A stretch of 64,000 nucleotides of DNA from Candidatus Dojkabacteria bacterium. GTDB taxonomy: Bacteria > Patescibacteriota > Dojkabacteria > SC72. Every line of letters starts with the position of its first letter. Positions within the stretch are counted from its first letter, which is position 1. Both the position numbers and the translations under genes were made by a program. Location of the stretch: positions 167,995-231,994 of the forward strand of contig JAGPFQ010000001.1 of assembly GCA_018056375.1 (NCBI GenBank). The letters run 5' to 3'. Shown here in pieces: positions 2,824-63,591 of the stretch. The notes under the pieces are model-generated. The model saw only the letters and a program-made list of their open reading frames with translations, had not been told where the DNA came from and ran no database searches.

Positions 2824-5800
2824 ATGAAGTTAAACAAAAAATCTTTTTTGAAATCTTTGTATAAGGTTTCAACAGTCCTATTTTTAGTAGGATATAACTT
2901 TGCCCAACCATTTTTAGCTATTAGACAGTTGTTAGATATAGGAGGGGAAATTACTCCTGTGGCGGCTGCTGATGGGCCATATACTATTTCTTCTACTAGT
3001 GGTATTTGGACTAAGGTTGAAGGAACAAGTAACTATTCTGGTGTGAATACCAGTGAGATAAGATGGGGAACTGGAAACCCAAGAAGTGGACTGAAATTTA
3101 CTTCTGCTGGTACTCAAACTTTTGATGCTGATCAGAAATTCCTCATAGGAGATTTGACACATATGAACTGGCCAGTTTCTGGAGGTACTGCAGATTCTGC
3201 AACTCTAAAAGTTACTTTAAATTTTTCCCAACCTCCTCTTTCTCCAAATCCAACATTTTCATACAAGTTCAATATAAATGAGACAAGTAATGGCTATTCT
3301 CCTTATACAAATTGTCCAGGATATGCTATTGGTGAACAGTTAAGTAAAACCCCATGTGATGATGTAATTACATTTCCGAATGCATATGGTCAGGGAGTTT
3401 TTACAATTGGAGATATGAAATATACATTGAAGATTGATGGGTTCCAGAGTCAATATCCAACAGGGGATCCTGTATCTAAATTCATAACAGAAGAGAAGAA
3501 AAATAATGTAGCATACTTAGTTGGTCATTTAAGTTCTGTTTTAGTTGAAAAACCAGCAATTTCAATTGAAAAATATGTTGCTGCAGTTGTTGAAGGGGAG
3601 GAAGATGTTTGGCATGATGCAGATACTGCACCAGGTATGTATATTGGAAAAGGTGATGAGGTTAAATTTAAATATGTAGTTCAAAATACAGGTAATGTTA
3701 AATTGACAAACATAGTAGTAACAGATAATAAAGGAGTAACTGTATCTTGTCCTTCTCCTGCAGAATTAGAAGCTGGTGGTAAAATGACTTGTAATAGTGT
3801 TGGTAACTATTATGCAGATTTAGGACTTTATACAAATATTGGAACTGTTGAAGGAACTCATGCAGGAGGCACTGTTACAGCAAGTGATCCTGCAAACTAT
3901 ACAGGTGTGAATAAAATTAGAATTTGTCATGCAACTAAAAGTGGTGAGGTAAATCCATACAATAATGCACAGGCAAGTATGACAGGTGATGTTCAAGGAC
4001 ATGATTCTCATCATGGTAATGTTCCTCCAAGAGTTTGGTATCCAGGTATTCAAGGAACTTGGGATGATATTATTCCTCCGTTTAATAATGAAGGTATTAG
4101 TTATCCTGGGAAGAACTGGGATGCATACGGACAATCTGTATATTACAACAACTGTACAATTCCTACAGGGACACTAAAGGTTAATAAGGTAACCGTACCT
4201 GCTGGAGATAATACAGAATTTGCAATAACAGGTTCAGGAGAATCAGCAGTAACAGGTGCTCCTACATTTATGAATGGAAATACAGGAACAATATCAAGTG
4301 CTTCTTCACATACATTTACAGTGTATCCAGGTACCTACTCTGTTGCAGAAACAAAGACTGATGGTTGGAAAGAAGTAAGCAATACTTGTAAGGATATTGT
4401 AGTTGCAAATGGTAAGAATGAAGAATGTACAATTACTAATACTAAGTATAGTTCATTAACAATTATTAAGAATGCAACACCGAGAAGTGAAGAAGAATTT
4501 AGCTTTACCACAACAGGTGAAGGTTTGGAAAATTTCAAATTAGTAGATAACTCAGATACAAGTAATCCAAGTAAGGTGTTTGAGAATCTCTTACCAGGAA
4601 ATTACTCTGTTAATGAGATAATCCCAGAACAGTGGAATTGGTATTTAGATAAAGTTGAGTGTACAGATGGAAAAAACCATGAAGCACTTACACTCTCTGC
4701 AGGAGAAAATATTACATGTACATTTAATAATGTTGAGTATGGATCTATCTCAGGTCATAAATGGAATGACTTCGATGGTATTCCAGGTACTGCAGATGAT
4801 AAGCTCAACCCTATTAAAGATTGGACAATCTTCATTGATGCAAATAATAATAATATATTAGATCCAGGTGAGACATCTATGCTCACAGGTGTTGATGGTA
4901 AATACTCATTTACTAAGTTGGAACCAGGTACATATAAGATAATGGAAGTACTACAATTAGGTTGGATCAATATTACAGGTAAAAGTCAAAGTATTACAAT
5001 AACTGCAGGAGAGAACAGAGTAGATGTTGATTTCAGCAATGTTAAATATCCAACAATTCAGGTTATTAAGAATGTAGATACAGATGGTAATGGTTCAGTT
5101 GATAAGGAGAATGCAAAAGATTGGACATGGAAACTAGGAGTTAATGAGACATATGATACAGGTATAGATCCTGTTGAGAAGATGCCAGGTACATATACTA
5201 TCTCAGAGGTTCAGAAAGATAACTATCATGTGACATCATTAGTATGTACTAAGAATGGTACTGAAATAGTTAATAAAGTAAGTGAAAGTACAGATATTAC
5301 ATTACAATCAGGAGATAAAGTAGTATGTACATTTACTAACACAAGAGATACAGGTACATTGATTGTCCAGAAAGTAGTTGTTAATGATAATGGTGGAGAA
5401 CTCAAGGCAGGTAATTTCTCATTCAAAGTAAATAATGGTGCTACTGTAACATTCAATCAAAGTACAGCAAATCCTTTATTCGGTGAGAATACAATTACAA
5501 AAGTTCCAACAGGTTCCTACTCTATTGTAGAGGTAGAAGCAGATCAAAGAGGATATGCTACTACATACAGTAATGATTGTAATGGACAATTAAATAAAGG
5601 TGATATTAAAACCTGTGTAATTACAAATAATGATAATGCACCAAAATTAGAGTTAGTAAAAACAGTTACAAATGATAATGGAGGTACATTAGGTATAGAG
5701 AATTGGAAACTAATAGCTGATGATGGAGAGGCATCAATTAGTGGATTTGGTGGTGTTGTAAGTGGAGATAACTTCAAAGCAGGAACATATACATTAAGTG

Positions 5801-8646
5801 AAGAAGGTAAAGAAGGTGTAGATGTATCAGGATACAAAGCAGGTAACTGGAGTTGTGAAGGTGCAACTGTAAATGGTAATCAAGTAGTTGTTCCATTCCA
5901 AGGAAATGTTAAATGTACAATTAACAATAATGATATTGCACCCAAACTTACACTTAACAAAATAGTTTCTAATACACATGGAGGAAACAATCCAGAGTCT
6001 GATTGGATGCTCTACGCTACTAAAGATAATGTTGTTGCACTCTCAGGAGCAGGAGCAGAAGGAGATGCAGATGTAGTAAGTGGAGAAACATTCCAAGCAG
6101 GTACATATACATTAAGTGAAGAAGGTAAAGAAGGTGTAGATGTCTCAGGATATACAGCAAGTGATTGGGAATGTATTGGTGGTGTACAAAATGGAAGTAC
6201 TATAAAATTAGGTGTTGGCGAAGAAGCAGTATGTAGTATTACAAATAGTGATACTCCTGCTCAATTGACTGTCATCAAACAAGTTAAGAACGATGATGGT
6301 GGACAAGCAACAGTAGAAGAGTTTGAAATTAAGAATAACGGTACCAAACTTACATTTGGAACAGGTTCTACAACAGGTGATATTACAGAATATAAATCTA
6401 CTCCAGCTGTAGAATCTAATACAACATATACACTTACTGAAAAAGATCACTATGGATACACAGAAGGTACTTGGACATGTATTGATGATGTTGCTAAAAC
6501 ACCAGTTGATCACCCAGTAACCTTGAAAGAAGGACAGAAAGTAACTTGTACAGTTCTAAACGATGATATTGCACCAAAGTTAACAATAGTTAAAAACCTT
6601 AATATTCAATATGGTGGTACAGCACAACCAGATGACTTTAAATTAACAGTTGGTGGTGTCGGAGTATTATCTGGCGAAACAAACGAGTATCTTGCAAATA
6701 CACCTTATGCAATAAATGAGAAATCATTCGTTGGTTATGAGTTTGTATCAATCACAGGAAGTAATAAATGTCCTGCTGTATTAGGAGGAACAATAACTCT
6801 TGATTTGGCTGATAATATTACTTGTACAATTACAAACAAAGATTTACCAGCAACAGTTACAGTATACAAAGATGTCTTAGATGGATTCTCTAACGATATC
6901 TTTAAGGTTCAGCTTGAAGATGGAGGTGAGAAGCTAGATATCAGCGATACAAAAGAAGCTGATGATAGATTAGTAGCAGTATTTAGAGACTTAGATCGTG
7001 GAGAATACTACCCAGAGGAAGTTGAACTTCCAGATGGATATATAGCTGAAGGTTGTGTTCCATTAGAAGGTTCTAGCAATACTGTTGAGAATGGTATGGG
7101 AATTGAGTTTGTATGTACAAACAAAGTAATTGATCCTCTTCTTAATATTGAAAAGAGCAATGATAAACAACATATAGATCAATATGCAGGTGATGAGGTT
7201 ACATACACAATCACAGTAACAGCACCTGAAGATGGAGAGAAAGGTACATATGTATTAAATAATGTAGTAGTCTCAGACATTGCTCCAGCAGGATTCAAAT
7301 ATATCTCTGGAACATGGACAGCACAGAAGAATGGTGTTGATATCTCAGTACCAGAGCCTACATACGATGATAAAGGTCAAGCAAAATGGAATATTGGAGA
7401 TATGAAAGAAGGAGATGTAGTTGTATTAACATACAAGACTAGAATCTCTCTTCTACAAGATCCAGGTAACTATCCAGATATTGCATGGGTAGAAGGTAAA
7501 TCACTAATAGATGGTCAAGTATTAGGTGCTTCTACAGTAGATCCAGAAACACCATTTGTAGGTACTGATGTAACAGTAATAGATCCAATTGAAACAGAAG
7601 AAGGAGAAGTATTAGGTGCATCAATTACTCTACCAGTAACAGGTGCAAGTACATATCTAACATTAGGTGCATTAATTATGATGTTCTTAGGTGCAATTAC
7701 CCTACTCCTTAAACCATTCAAGAAGTTAAGCTATGCTCTTCTTACTGGTTTAATGGCACTATCATTTGTAACTCTACTTACTCCTAACAGAGTATTAGCA
7801 GCAGACAGTGATATTCAGGTAAGAATAATGCAACCTGCAACTCCAACAAACAAAACTAGCTTTAATGTTGGATTTGTAGCACTAGACCTTAACAACAAAG
7901 AGGTTACAGTAGAATGTTACAAAGATGGTACATTGTTCAAAACAATTCCTAATGCAAATGCAGGAAATTGTCCAGCAACAGTAGATGCAAGTGGAACATA
8001 TACTTTCTATGTCATTGCAAAATCTGCTTCTGGTGAACAAAAATCAGAAGATGCAATAGTTGTTGTAGACTTAGTAAAACCATCACCTGTAATTGACTAC
8101 TCAAAGGCAGGTAATGTGATTAAGTTCAAAACAGGAAATGATGCAAAGGTTGTGAAGGTTGAAATTCACAGATCTACAACTCCTAAATATACTGCAAATG
8201 AAAGTACGAGGGTTAAGACCATGAATGTAGAGCCAAATGAAGAGTATTCATGGACAGATACAACAGCAGAAGCAGGAAAGACATACTACTATGCTCTTAG
8301 AACAGTAGATGCTATCGGTAATACATCTACAATTGTATCAGACCCTGAGGTAGTAGAAGTACCTGCAGCAACTACAGGTACTGCAACCACAATAGCAACT
8401 ACAAATACAAGAACAGGAGATGTTGCAGGTCAAACAGATACAAAGAAAGAAGGAGAAGTTGCAGGTGAGACAGATGATATTACAGAAGGTGAAGATACAG
8501 AAGTAAAGAAGACAGAAGAAGGTAAAGAGAAAGTAGATATTAAGGAAACAGGAAAGAATATTTTAAGTAAATGGTACTTCTGGGTAATAGTAGTTGTAGT
8601 CATTGGAGGAGTAGCATTCTATGTCAGAAAACAAAAGAGTAATTAA
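2824..8646 (+). CDS. giant multi-domain surface adhesin / pilin-like sortase substrate (Cna-B/SpaA-type repeats) with internal LPVTG sorting signal and in-frame C-terminal Fn3 module
   Basis: N-terminal signal peptide; more than 8 repeats of G-T-Y-x-[LI]-x-E...G[YW] motifs typical of Cna-B/SpaA domains; LPVTG plus 22 hydrophobic residues plus KPFKK at aa 1603-1634; the ORF then continues for 306 aa (signal-peptide-like stretch, Fn3-like YYYALRTVDAIGNTS, IKETG plus TM plus RKQKSN). Confidence 0.8.
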   Translation: MKLNKKSFLKSLYKVSTVLFLVGYNFAQPFLAIRQLLDIGGEITPVAAADGPYTISSTSGIWTKVEGTSNYSGVNTSEIRWGTGNPRSGLKFTSAGTQTFDADQKFLIGDLTHMNWPVSGGTADSATLKVTLNFSQPPLSPNPTFSYKFNINETSNGYSPYTNCPGYAIGEQLSKTPCDDVITFPNAYGQGVFTIGDMKYTLKIDGFQSQYPTGDPVSKFITEEKKNNVAYLVGHLSSVLVEKPAISIEKYVAAVVEGEEDVWHDADTAPGMYIGKGDEVKFKYVVQNTGNVKLTNIVVTDNKGVTVSCPSPAELEAGGKMTCNSVGNYYADLGLYTNIGTVEGTHAGGTVTASDPANYTGVNKIRICHATKSGEVNPYNNAQASMTGDVQGHDSHHGNVPPRVWYPGIQGTWDDIIPPFNNEGISYPGKNWDAYGQSVYYNNCTIPTGTLKVNKVTVPAGDNTEFAITGSGESAVTGAPTFMNGNTGTISSASSHTFTVYPGTYSVAETKTDGWKEVSNTCKDIVVANGKNEECTITNTKYSSLTIIKNATPRSEEEFSFTTTGEGLENFKLVDNSDTSNPSKVFENLLPGNYSVNEIIPEQWNWYLDKVECTDGKNHEALTLSAGENITCTFNNVEYGSISGHKWNDFDGIPGTADDKLNPIKDWTIFIDANNNNILDPGETSMLTGVDGKYSFTKLEPGTYKIMEVLQLGWINITGKSQSITITAGENRVDVDFSNVKYPTIQVIKNVDTDGNGSVDKENAKDWTWKLGVNETYDTGIDPVEKMPGTYTISEVQKDNYHVTSLVCTKNGTEIVNKVSESTDITLQSGDKVVCTFTNTRDTGTLIVQKVVVNDNGGELKAGNFSFKVNNGATVTFNQSTANPLFGENTITKVPTGSYSIVEVEADQRGYATTYSNDCNGQLNKGDIKTCVITNNDNAPKLELVKTVTNDNGGTLGIENWKLIADDGEASISGFGGVVSGDNFKAGTYTLSEEGKEGVDVSGYKAGNWSCEGATVNGNQVVVPFQGNVKCTINNNDIAPKLTLNKIVSNTHGGNNPESDWMLYATKDNVVALSGAGAEGDADVVSGETFQAGTYTLSEEGKEGVDVSGYTASDWECIGGVQNGSTIKLGVGEEAVCSITNSDTPAQLTVIKQVKNDDGGQATVEEFEIKNNGTKLTFGTGSTTGDITEYKSTPAVESNTTYTLTEKDHYGYTEGTWTCIDDVAKTPVDHPVTLKEGQKVTCTVLNDDIAPKLTIVKNLNIQYGGTAQPDDFKLTVGGVGVLSGETNEYLANTPYAINEKSFVGYEFVSITGSNKCPAVLGGTITLDLADNITCTITNKDLPATVTVYKDVLDGFSNDIFKVQLEDGGEKLDISDTKEADDRLVAVFRDLDRGEYYPEEVELPDGYIAEGCVPLEGSSNTVENGMGIEFVCTNKVIDPLLNIEKSNDKQHIDQYAGDEVTYTITVTAPEDGEKGTYVLNNVVVSDIAPAGFKYISGTWTAQKNGVDISVPEPTYDDKGQAKWNIGDMKEGDVVVLTYKTRISLLQDPGNYPDIAWVEGKSLIDGQVLGASTVDPETPFVGTDVTVIDPIETEEGEVLGASITLPVTGASTYLTLGALIMMFLGAITLLLKPFKKLSYALLTGLMALSFVTLLTPNRVLAADSDIQVRIMQPATPTNKTSFNVGFVALDLNNKEVTVECYKDGTLFKTIPNANAGNCPATVDASGTYTFYVIAKSASGEQKSEDAIVVVDLVKPSPVIDYSKAGNVIKFKTGNDAKVVKVEIHRSTTPKYTANESTRVKTMNVEPNEEYSWTDTTAEAGKTYYYALRTVDAIGNTSTIVSDPEVVEVPAATTGTATTIATTNTRTGDVAGQTDTKKEGEVAGETDDITEGEDTEVKKTEEGKEKVDIKETGKNILSKWYFWVIVVVVIGGVAFYVRKQKSN

Positions 8647-9289
8647 CAAAAAGGTTCTAGTAGGAGTAATATTACTCCTGCTAGGCCTCACTGCCCTTCT
8701 TTTGACATACAGGCCAGTAATCAAGGCTAAGATATCGCAATATAGATTTTCAGAACCATCAACTAGCAATGTAGTTCTCTCTAAGGATGGAGATATTACT
8801 AAAGAGATTAAACCAGAAACAAAAGAAGTAATCCTAGATTCAAAGTTTGGTTTGTATATTCCAAAGATTAAATCAAATGCATCAGTAGTTGCTAATGTAA
8901 GTCCATACAAAGAAGCTGAATATATTAAAGCATTAGAAACAGGTATTGCACATGCAAAAGGTACAGTCACACCAGACAAGAAAGGTAATGTATTTCTCTT
9001 TGCACACTCAGCAGTAAATTTCTATGAAAGAAACAAATATGATGTATACTTCTATCTCCTTCATGAATTAAAGAAAGATGATGAAATATTTGTAAGTTAT
9101 AACGGTATTATCTACAAATACAGAGTTCAAGAGGTAAAGATTGTTAACAGAGATGATGTTAAATATCTAAGTAAGTACTCTGATGAGGATACTCTAACCT
9201 TAATGACCTGCTATCCTGCAGGTACAGACTGGAAGAGAACAATAGTTATCGCTTACAGAGACTCTCAAGAACCTATTGTTGAGAAATAA
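8621..9289 (+). CDS. sortase (transpeptidase), membrane-anchored
   Basis: N-terminal TM; active-site His (FLFAHS), TLMTC catalytic Cys motif and downstream Arg; start overlaps the adhesin stop by 26 nt. Confidence 0.8.
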   Translation: MSENKRVINKKVLVGVILLLLGLTALLLTYRPVIKAKISQYRFSEPSTSNVVLSKDGDITKEIKPETKEVILDSKFGLYIPKIKSNASVVANVSPYKEAEYIKALETGIAHAKGTVTPDKKGNVFLFAHSAVNFYERNKYDVYFYLLHELKKDDEIFVSYNGIIYKYRVQEVKIVNRDDVKYLSKYSDEDTLTLMTCYPAGTDWKRTIVIAYRDSQEPIVEK

Positions 9290-23550: not shown

Positions 23551-23628
23551 TGGGGTGAGTAATGGGAGTTGAACCCACAACCTCTGGTGCCACAAACCAG
23601 CGCTCTAACCAATTGAGCTATACCCACC
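23551..23628 (-). tRNA. tRNA-His (GTG) with G-1
   Basis: reverse complement folds as a cloverleaf; 8-bp acceptor stem with G-1:C73, anticodon loop TTGTGGC, T-loop TTCAACT, CCA encoded. Confidence 0.85.
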
Positions 23629-55233: not shown

Positions 55234-55310
55234 CGGGGAGTAGTTCAGATGGCTAGAACGCTGCATTTGGGATGCAGAGGTCGCAGGTTCAAGTCCTGTC
55301 TCCCCGACCA
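55234..55310 (+). tRNA. tRNA-Pro (TGG)
   Basis: cloverleaf with acceptor CGGGGAG/CTCCCCG, anticodon loop TTTGGGA, T-loop TTCAAGT, CCA encoded. Confidence 0.85.
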
Positions 55311-63517: not shown

Positions 63518-63591
63518 TGGTTGCGGGACATGGATTCGAACCATGATTCTCGGCTTCAAAGACCGGCATCCTACCATTAGATGATCCCGCA
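63518..63591 (-). tRNA. tRNA-Gln (TTG)
   Basis: reverse-complement cloverleaf with U1:A72 (as in E. coli tRNA-Gln), anticodon loop CTTTGAA, perfect T-arm CATGG-TTCGAAT-CCATG, CCA encoded. Confidence 0.8.

Follow-up and report, generated by a model that had tools for sequence, protein, structure and literature searches.

A giant adhesin and an Ig/Fn3 membrane protein in one reading frame: a proposed sortase-processed precursor from Candidatus Dojkabacteria

The question raised by the locus described here is why an open reading frame (ORF) that contains a complete sortase sorting signal runs on through this signal into a second protein, and what becomes of the long precursor that it encodes. 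The ORF lies in a stretch of 64,000 nucleotides (nt), hereafter the window, from Candidatus Dojkabacteria bacterium (Patescibacteriota; SC72), assembly GCA_018056375.1, contig JAGPFQ010000001.1, positions 167,995-231,994 of the forward strand, and comprises a fibrillar adhesin, an internal sorting signal, an internal signal peptide, an immunoglobulin (Ig)/Fn3 module and a transmembrane (TM) anchor. It is proposed, with a probability of roughly 0.65, that the ORF is a natural and long-fixed fusion of the first and second genes of a three-gene sortase cassette of the Candidate Phyla Radiation (CPR), whose product is resolved into two proteins. The cassette consists of a giant fibrillar LPxTG adhesin, a protein of about 320 amino acids (aa) with a signal peptide, two Ig/Fn3 domains, a linker and a TM segment, and a dedicated sortase.

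The junction and its continuity in Dojkabacteria

The ORF and the segments of its junction are as follows.

2824..8646, + strand: whole precursor ORF, ATG start, 1940 aa plus stop; kept as a single ORF in orthologues
7630..7644, + strand: LPVTG sortase motif, aa 1603-1607; L, P, T and G invariant in orthologues, x being V, D or N
7645..7710, + strand: TM1, 22 aa, hydrophobic stretch within the sorting signal, ASTYLTLGALIMMFLGAITLLL (KD19 2.23; AlphaFold2 helix 5-26)
7711..7725, + strand: KPFKK, predicted cytoplasmic basic loop; a basic patch lies at the same place in fused relatives
7726..7800, + strand: TM2, internal signal peptide (LSYALL...TPNRVLA), LSYALLTGLMALSFVTLLTPNRVLA, followed by ADSD

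An earlier note on this DNA had read LPVTG, the 22 hydrophobic residues and KPFKK as a sorting signal through which the frame stays open, and the sequence agrees: 306 residues (aa 1635-1940) follow KPFKK without a stop, and they contain the segment ending VLA-AD, the Thr/Glu linker and the C-terminal TM segment which that note described. Its "Fn3-like domain" was right as to the beta-sandwich fold but not as to number, the AlphaFold2 model having two such domains. KPFKK serves twice, closing the sorting signal as its tail and opening the internal signal peptide as its n-region, and a signal peptidase I site is predicted after VLA (between 7800 and 7801), where the -3 and -1 residues are kept in orthologues. 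The window protein has the LPXTG motif, the approximately 20 hydrophobic residues with a basic tail and the N-terminal secretion signal expected of a sortase substrate; placement of the sorting signal at the extreme C-terminus is absent from it and is found in three relatives with split genes (L024, L027 and L028, described below). No further LPxTG with a hydrophobic segment occurs in any real gene of the 64-kb window. In the orthologues L, P, T and G never change whereas x does, so the motif is under selection, and a chance origin of the junction is excluded because every orthologue read has it, as do 89 of 96 long representatives, each from a different 50%-identity cluster.

A read-through of this kind could also be produced by a sequencing or assembly error, or by the recent loss of a stop codon between two genes, and the database seemed at first sight to contain those two genes: a first search with the 306-aa C-terminal part returned nine proteins, some of them only 318-324 aa long. 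These "separate" proteins begin at the Met-Met inside TM1, and in the DNA the frame upstream of them is broken by runs of N, while the frame from LPxTG into the module is continuous; the 324-aa "separate gene" calls are thus artefacts of N runs. Scans of species-representative genomes and metagenomes provided loci L006-L023, and all 20 of the 20 Dojkabacteria loci that span the junction (the window included, and the identical L003, L004 and L005 counted) are continuous, although they stem from independent samples and assemblers. Full-length ORFs free of N are present in L006 (2528 codons from stop to stop), L007 (on a 749-kb contig), L008, L010, L013, L017 and L019. The same fusion is found in about 100 other 50%-identity clusters, and the window's clade has no start codon at the beginning of TM2; near 7726 there is no ATG, GTG or TTG usable as the start of a second gene, except an ATGATG inside TM1. 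An error or a recent stop-codon loss, which the earlier note had considered, is therefore extremely improbable, the fusion being fixed across the 20 Dojkabacteria loci and prevailing in the family at large. Single-ORF homologues had been listed there as a point against a functional read-through; they instead exclude error and argue for function. Across the Dojkabacteria loci, the length before the LPxTG motif varies from about 1100 to 2553 aa, and that after the motif is steady at 329-354 aa.

Fused and split forms of the cassette

The part of the precursor beyond TM2 comprises the following segments.

7813..8067, + strand: module domain 1, Ig-like beta-sandwich (AlphaFold2 predicted local distance difference test score, pLDDT, of 85-94 over aa 1664-1748)
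8089..8331, + strand: module domain 2, Fn3-like beta-sandwich (AlphaFold2 pLDDT 70-86 over aa 1756-1836)
8362..8568, + strand: disordered Thr/Glu/Lys-rich linker, 69 aa (AlphaFold2 pLDDT below 50)
8569..8643, + strand: TM3 anchor, KWYFWVIVVVVIGGVAFYV (8569-8625), and predicted cytoplasmic tail RKQKSN, from hydrophobicity and the AlphaFold2 terminal helix

In the AlphaFold2 model of aa 1603-1940 a two-helix hairpin is followed by two beta-sandwiches, a disordered linker and a terminal helix. Domain 2 is the most conserved part of the module (PVIDYSKAGNV.KFKT...VEIHRS...YYYALR), for which no match to the Pfam fn3 sequence profile was obtained. The Cys pair of domain 1 (C1698 and C1716; 7915-7917 and 7969-7971) is 100% conserved in 147 aligned family sequences, and since it is invariant, an exported, disulfide-bonded domain fits. 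At position 1817 (window 8272-8274), Cys is found in 88% of the wider family and Ala in the window, where this domain-2 cysteine has been lost.

The two module domains (alignment A3) were used for an exhaustive HMMER profile search of 1.84 billion cluster representatives, which yielded 1275 matches at E<=1e-3; 561 of them, spread widely over CPR/Patescibacteria, reach E<=1e-10, and 73 reach E<=1e-30; the fused and split counts given here cover the best 150 matches. Ninety-six of these are long proteins with the module about 100 aa from the C-terminus, and in 89 of the 96 a sorting motif (LPxTG in 87, MPxTG and LPxAD in one each) leads into a hydrophobic segment and a basic patch, after which come a TM2 resembling a signal peptide, with an AxA-type ending, and the module. 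The stand-alone forms (approximately 34-42) are 305-350 aa long, typically about 320 aa, with an ordinary signal peptide at the beginning and the same linker and TM segment at the end. Their signal peptide ends just before the N-terminal module motif xSVRIEQPxSPTN (for example MKLFLKSLTALLLILATASTVFA, followed by SALSIRVEEPKSPTN). Because TM2 of the window protein occupies the same position before the same module motif, it corresponds to the signal peptide of the separate gene. With strict classes, 107 members are fused and 34 are split, and a C-terminal hydrophobic segment is present in 96 of the 107 fused and 31 of the 34 stand-alone forms. Fitch parsimony on a neighbour-joining tree gave about 18 changes between the fused and split states, an approximate count given that the tree rests on a module of about 180 aa, versus about 31 for shuffled states; the difference argues for repeated fusion or fission, and the two arrangements appear to be functionally interchangeable.

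Three split cassettes (L024, L027 and L028) were checked in DNA. In L024, the upstream adhesin ends in ...LPSTGADTLWLFVAMGLITGGYGLRKLGKRLTN and a stop, the ATG of the module gene follows 1 nt later, and the sortase gene comes after the module. In L027, the adhesin ends in ...LPATG-TM-KLKKKYA-stop, and in L028 in ...LPQTG-TM-KIRRKYE-stop; in both, the module gene starts at an ATG that overlaps this stop in a different frame (ATGCTTAA and ATGAATAA, respectively) and the sortase lies within 5-8 nt after the module. Split and fused relatives have orthologous sortases beside them, which share motifs and, along their whole length, 38-41% identity (E 1e-47 to 1e-57). The alternative raised in the earlier note, that two genes had fused, is hence correct as to origin, since in relatives adhesin and module have genes of their own, which abut or overlap and lie upstream of an orthologous sortase; the alignment of homologues that it suggested reveals two genes in these three loci and a single ORF in all 20 Dojkabacteria loci.

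Family members with a named source belong to Dojkabacteria, Moranbacteria/Moraniibacteriota, Microgenomates and "Patescibacteria group". The window protein agrees with the definition of the family (profile A3) in its signal-peptide-like segment, the motif at the start of the module, the two beta-sandwiches with the Cys pair, the linker and the TM segment, and in its position between an LPxTG adhesin and a sortase. Source annotations of the members read "choice-of-anchor K", "VWA domain", "LPXTG cell-wall anchored" or "hypothetical". Word-indexed protein searches with the junction alone, or with DUF11 plus the sorting signal, returned no matches, though known homologues hold both, and are not counted as evidence.

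Sortase, adhesin and proposed maturation

The third gene of the cassette follows directly.

8621..9289, + strand: sortase gene (Pfam PF04203, 8.8e-24), overlapping the precursor ORF by 26 nt

The catalytic His, the Cys of TLxTC and the Arg are all present in its product, and FLFAHS, TLTLMTC and KR can be aligned both with orthologues and with class C structures. At its start (8598-8623) a GGAGG lies upstream, encoded by a Gly-Gly of the precursor's TM3. The sortase overlaps or directly follows the fused ORF in every Dojkabacteria locus in which the downstream region was read, and in L030. A different arrangement is seen in L029 (L029:14713-18622, Moraniibacteriota), in which the fused precursor is followed by an 852-aa SpaA/SdrD_B protein, a 130-aa ORF and then the sortase; some cassettes may thus carry extra, putative substrates.

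We propose that the precursor matures as follows. The N-terminal Sec signal would export the adhesin, after which TM1 (out to in) and KPFKK would stop transfer and leave KPFKK in the cytoplasm; TM2 (in to out), the former signal peptide of gene 2, would then re-initiate translocation to deliver the module, and TM3 (out to in) would stop transfer a second time, with RKQKSN in the cytoplasm. Charges and hydrophobic segments are consistent with a positive-inside topology throughout. The sortase of the overlapping gene would cut at LPVT/G (here and below the slash marks the cleavage site) and move the adhesin to the wall or another acceptor; the peptidoglycan genes murB and alr are present in the window. 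Signal peptidase I would probably cut after VLA, giving a 281-aa Ig/Fn3 protein held by TM3 and a 53-aa TM hairpin. Because split relatives deliver two proteins with the same signals, the fused precursor is expected to give the same two products, and fusion would only enforce their 1:1 co-synthesis and co-localisation; the positive-inside topology and two-product split envisaged by the earlier note match this prediction.

Several points weigh against this interpretation. At E<=0.01, Pfam PF00746 (Gram_pos_anchor) does not appear among the matches of the window protein; the same model scores 22.7 bits (cutoff 20) with the orthologue L019 and 17.6 bits with P0039. The topology and the signal peptidase site were judged from hydrophobicity and the -3/-1 rule, and the -3/-1 test as applied across the family is lenient. 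Fold searches with the module gave generic Ig/Fn3 matches only. Finally, seven of the 96 long relatives have degraded motifs at the same place and keep TM1, TM2 and the module.

These seven relatives (motifs such as LAQTG, AATG and ITGQ) are a point in favour of a second reading, in which no cleavage takes place, LPVTG is vestigial and a 1940-aa protein with three TM segments displays adhesin and module together from the membrane. The fused protein would be membrane-anchored in any case, so its retention needs no cleavage. Such a reading is nevertheless unlikely, given that LPxTG is kept in 87 of the 96 clusters and that its four fixed residues stay invariant in the Dojkabacteria loci while x drifts; the constant neighbourhood of the sortase gene and the split relatives, which necessarily make two proteins, also speak against it. 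The degraded members (P0036, P0053, P0058, P0062, P0072, P0073 and P0107) show LAQTG, LAATG, AATGTN, AITGTD and LAVTG, and they may mark lineages that have given up sortase processing or altered its specificity.

A third reading concerns translation, and starts from the ATGATG noted above.

7665..7683, + strand: Shine-Dalgarno (SD)-like AGGTG (7665-7669), an 8-nt spacer and ATGATG in TM1; possible internal start, used by gene callers where N runs break the upstream frame

If the module were also, or mainly, made by initiation at ATGATG (7678-7683), the locus would act as two overlapping genes. The 12 codons before ATGATG have the lowest synonymous divergence in a 520-codon alignment (0.063 versus 0.306; 11 observed and 60.7 expected), with GASTYLTLGALI (within window 7642-7683) nearly free of synonymous change among lineages, and the sole change in the SD-like sequence, GGT to GGA in L006 and L009, gives AGGAG; the sortase gene of this operon likewise starts behind GGAGG. 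Elsewhere in the family, by a count made by eye, about a quarter of the fused forms retain Met-Lys in frame at the beginning of TM2, at the very place where a stand-alone gene would begin its signal peptide. Against this, permutation tests are not significant (P=0.22; 0.08-0.42), the codons of low divergence are mostly preferred ones, and 41 of 47 starts of window ORFs of at least 150 aa have no SD-like motif within 20 nt; the genome seems to initiate mostly without SD sequences, with the sortase start as an exception. The product would moreover have an odd signal peptide, with 11 hydrophobic residues before the basic patch, and ribosomes translating the adhesin read through the site anyway, so that internal initiation would supplement the precursor route without taking its place. 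We regard it as improbable, to about the same degree as the absence of cleavage. The Met-Lys forms belong to other CPR lineages (for example ...KRKARN-MKALLPL...; P0028, P0031, P0041, P0042, P0043, P0060, P0061, P0091, P0094, P0099 and P0140, among others) and are absent from the window's clade; the Met-Lys is either what is left of a former start codon or an internal start that can still be used.

The sortase itself suggests a fourth possibility, namely that a pilus-type (class C-like) enzyme joins the adhesin Thr to a Lys of the module or to its new N-terminus, giving a covalent heterodimer from which the TM hairpin is excised. Among solved sortases the class C pilus enzymes are nearest, adhesin, module and sortase are always encoded together, and the invariant inter-domain segment PVIDYSKAGN loosely resembles the pilin motif VxVYPK. 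Several observations disfavour it. The sortase scores 65.9 bits with the NCBIfam class C model NF033745 (cutoff 160), falls below every named class cutoff and passes the generic TIGR01076 only. The best-conserved Lys of the module, that at the domain interface in PVIDYSKAGN, is Arg in 18% of family members, and the residue after the predicted signal peptidase site varies (A, E, L, G, V, ...). Neither an LPxTG nor the YPK pilin motif nor an E-box is present in the module, whose folds are generic Ig/Fn3 and not those of a CnaA/CnaB pilin. Ligation is accordingly less probable than either of the two preceding readings; the Lys of YSK is disfavoured as a YPK-like pilin acceptor, and the suggestion of the earlier note that the second module might be a pilin is not borne out.

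The proposed maturation into two products has as its larger part the N-terminal approximately 1600 aa, which form the adhesin.

2824..2919, + strand: N-terminal Sec-type signal peptide, read by eye (MKLNKKSFLKSLYK n-region, hydrophobic core, ...FLA)
2992..3519, + strand: choice-of-anchor K head domain (NCBIfam NF038131, 1.1e-29)
3649..3882, + strand: DUF7507/CLIPPER_2 domain (Pfam PF24346, 4.9e-12)
4456..7023, + strand: SpaA-type (CnaB-like, prealbumin-fold) repeat stalk (Pfam SpaA_4, SpaA, SdrD_B and five SpaA_2); boundaries are the approximate span across the Pfam matches
7141..7503, + strand: DUF11/CLIPPER (CnaA-like) domain just 5' of the sorting signal (PF01345, 1.2e-10; TIGR01451)

Ten orthologues share the conserved N-terminal signal, and in several of them the AxA site is clear (VALA/AEE, SALA/ISD); the SpaA_2 match in the stalk reaches 2e-67 over five stretches in Pfam. 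DUF11 and DUF7507 have been renamed CLIPPER and CLIPPER_2, CLIPPER being a CnaA-like isopeptide stalk domain (PMC12617251). The possibility that CLIPPER (DUF11) serves as a cleavage domain was rejected, as it is an isopeptide stalk domain and no protease (PMC12617251). Between DUF7507 and the stalk lies a Cys/His-rich stretch (window 3913-4160, aa 364-445; KIRICHATKSGEVNPY...GHDSHHG...), which was matched by no Pfam or NCBIfam model. The adhesive head is exchanged among orthologues, being choice-of-anchor K and/or DUF7507 in the window, L006 and L010 and VWA in L008 (L008:4130-11089) and P0140 (Moraniibacteriota), and the number of SpaA_2 repeats ranges from 3 to 11, so that a variable head and stalk are carried on a constant C-terminal cassette. 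In L003 the adhesin frame is broken at about 1985 (about 2725 in L004 and L005): it ends in ...EVTRQ-stop and resumes in another register at ...KTVEVTCTNKVID. The break is identical in three independent samples (SRR25435804, SRR25435880 and SRR25436058), while the related L018 and L019 are intact over the stretch that they cover; a genuine disruption, phase variation and a systematic error of assembly are all conceivable. Rfam gave no match within or near the precursor ORF. Elsewhere in the window are a glmS ribozyme/riboswitch (RF00234, 25476-25610, - strand, 49.1 bits, E 2.2e-08) and three tRNAs (23554-23627, - strand; 55234-55307, + strand; 63521-63591, - strand).

Significance and comparison with known systems

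CPR bacteria (Patescibacteria) are mostly uncultivated epibionts whose attachment to their hosts is poorly understood. The conserved surface cassette identified here comprises an isopeptide-stalk adhesin, an Ig/Fn3 membrane protein and a sortase, the first two of which form one ORF in most sampled lineages. Current annotation names overlook the second product, and gene callers yield spurious 324-aa genes starting in TM1 when the upstream frame is broken. If the proposed processing is correct, the sortase splits a precursor, and the internal LPXTG of the Zmp type becomes a widespread design principle. A bolder proposal, which we advance tentatively and judge somewhat less likely than not to hold, is that in a large part of the CPR the sortase doubles as a polyprotein-maturation enzyme and that the Ig/Fn3 partner, made in stoichiometric amount, is an obligatory and so far unrecognised third component of an adhesin system peculiar to the CPR, for example a membrane dock or assembly platform in episymbiotic host attachment. 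Were this so, the recurrent split and fused variants would show that selection acts on the co-delivery of adhesin and partner; the natural split/fused pairs provide a ready experimental handle.

No description of the fused CPR architecture was found in the literature, most subscription journals lying outside the coverage, and the CPR family is apparently previously undescribed; the junction layout itself has a precedent in the Zmp proteases. These have a signal peptide, an LPXTG motif, two TM segments and a second signal-peptidase-like site (PMC3518915). The junction logic of the streptococcal Zmp family (the IgA1 protease along with ZmpB, ZmpC and ZmpD; MEROPS M26) is that of LPVTG-TM1-KPFKK-TM2-VLA/AD. 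In Zmp proteins, however, the LPXTG lies near the N-terminus behind a short segment and a big metalloprotease lies downstream, whereas here a 1600-aa adhesin is upstream and a small Ig/Fn3-TM protein downstream; the precursor has no match to M26 or another peptidase family in Pfam and no sequence relationship to the Zmp family. We know of no split two-gene counterparts of Zmp proteins, while split forms are common in the CPR family. The precursor is thus Zmp-like at its junction and not a member of the Zmp family.

The adhesin part shares with canonical LPXTG fibrillar adhesins the signal peptide, head, isopeptide-type stalk, sorting signal and adjacent sortase (PMC12617251). The canonical proteins stop after the basic tail, whereas the window ORF runs through a signal peptide into another protein. 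Sortase-assembled pilus clusters resemble the cassette in that the gene of a large adhesin is followed by that of a small accessory surface protein and then by a sortase gene, and class C sortases are the nearest to the one found here; they differ in that the module is TM-anchored, lacks the sorting and pilin motifs, the E-box and the CnaA/CnaB fold, and is accompanied by a sortase that fails the class C cutoff. PamR, PamC and PamD of the CPR Pam pilus have two tandem Ig/FnIII-like domains and a C-terminal TM helix (bioRxiv 10.64898/2026.03.03.709456). The likeness of the module to these proteins is one of architecture by description, the fold matches being generic; PamR is RbmA-like, and RbmA is among the fold matches of the module (ranks 6 and 43). 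Pam pili are assembled by donor-strand exchange with no sortase (bioRxiv 10.64898/2026.03.03.709456), whereas the window cassette has a sortase. A different parallel is offered by viral and eukaryotic polyproteins, from which the precursor differs in being bacterial and in that one of its two cuts is proposed to be made by a sortase transpeptidase. In the flavivirus structural polyprotein, internal signal sequences are cut by signal peptidase, and alternating stop-transfer and signal sequences give several products, much as TM1, TM2 and TM3 are proposed to do here.

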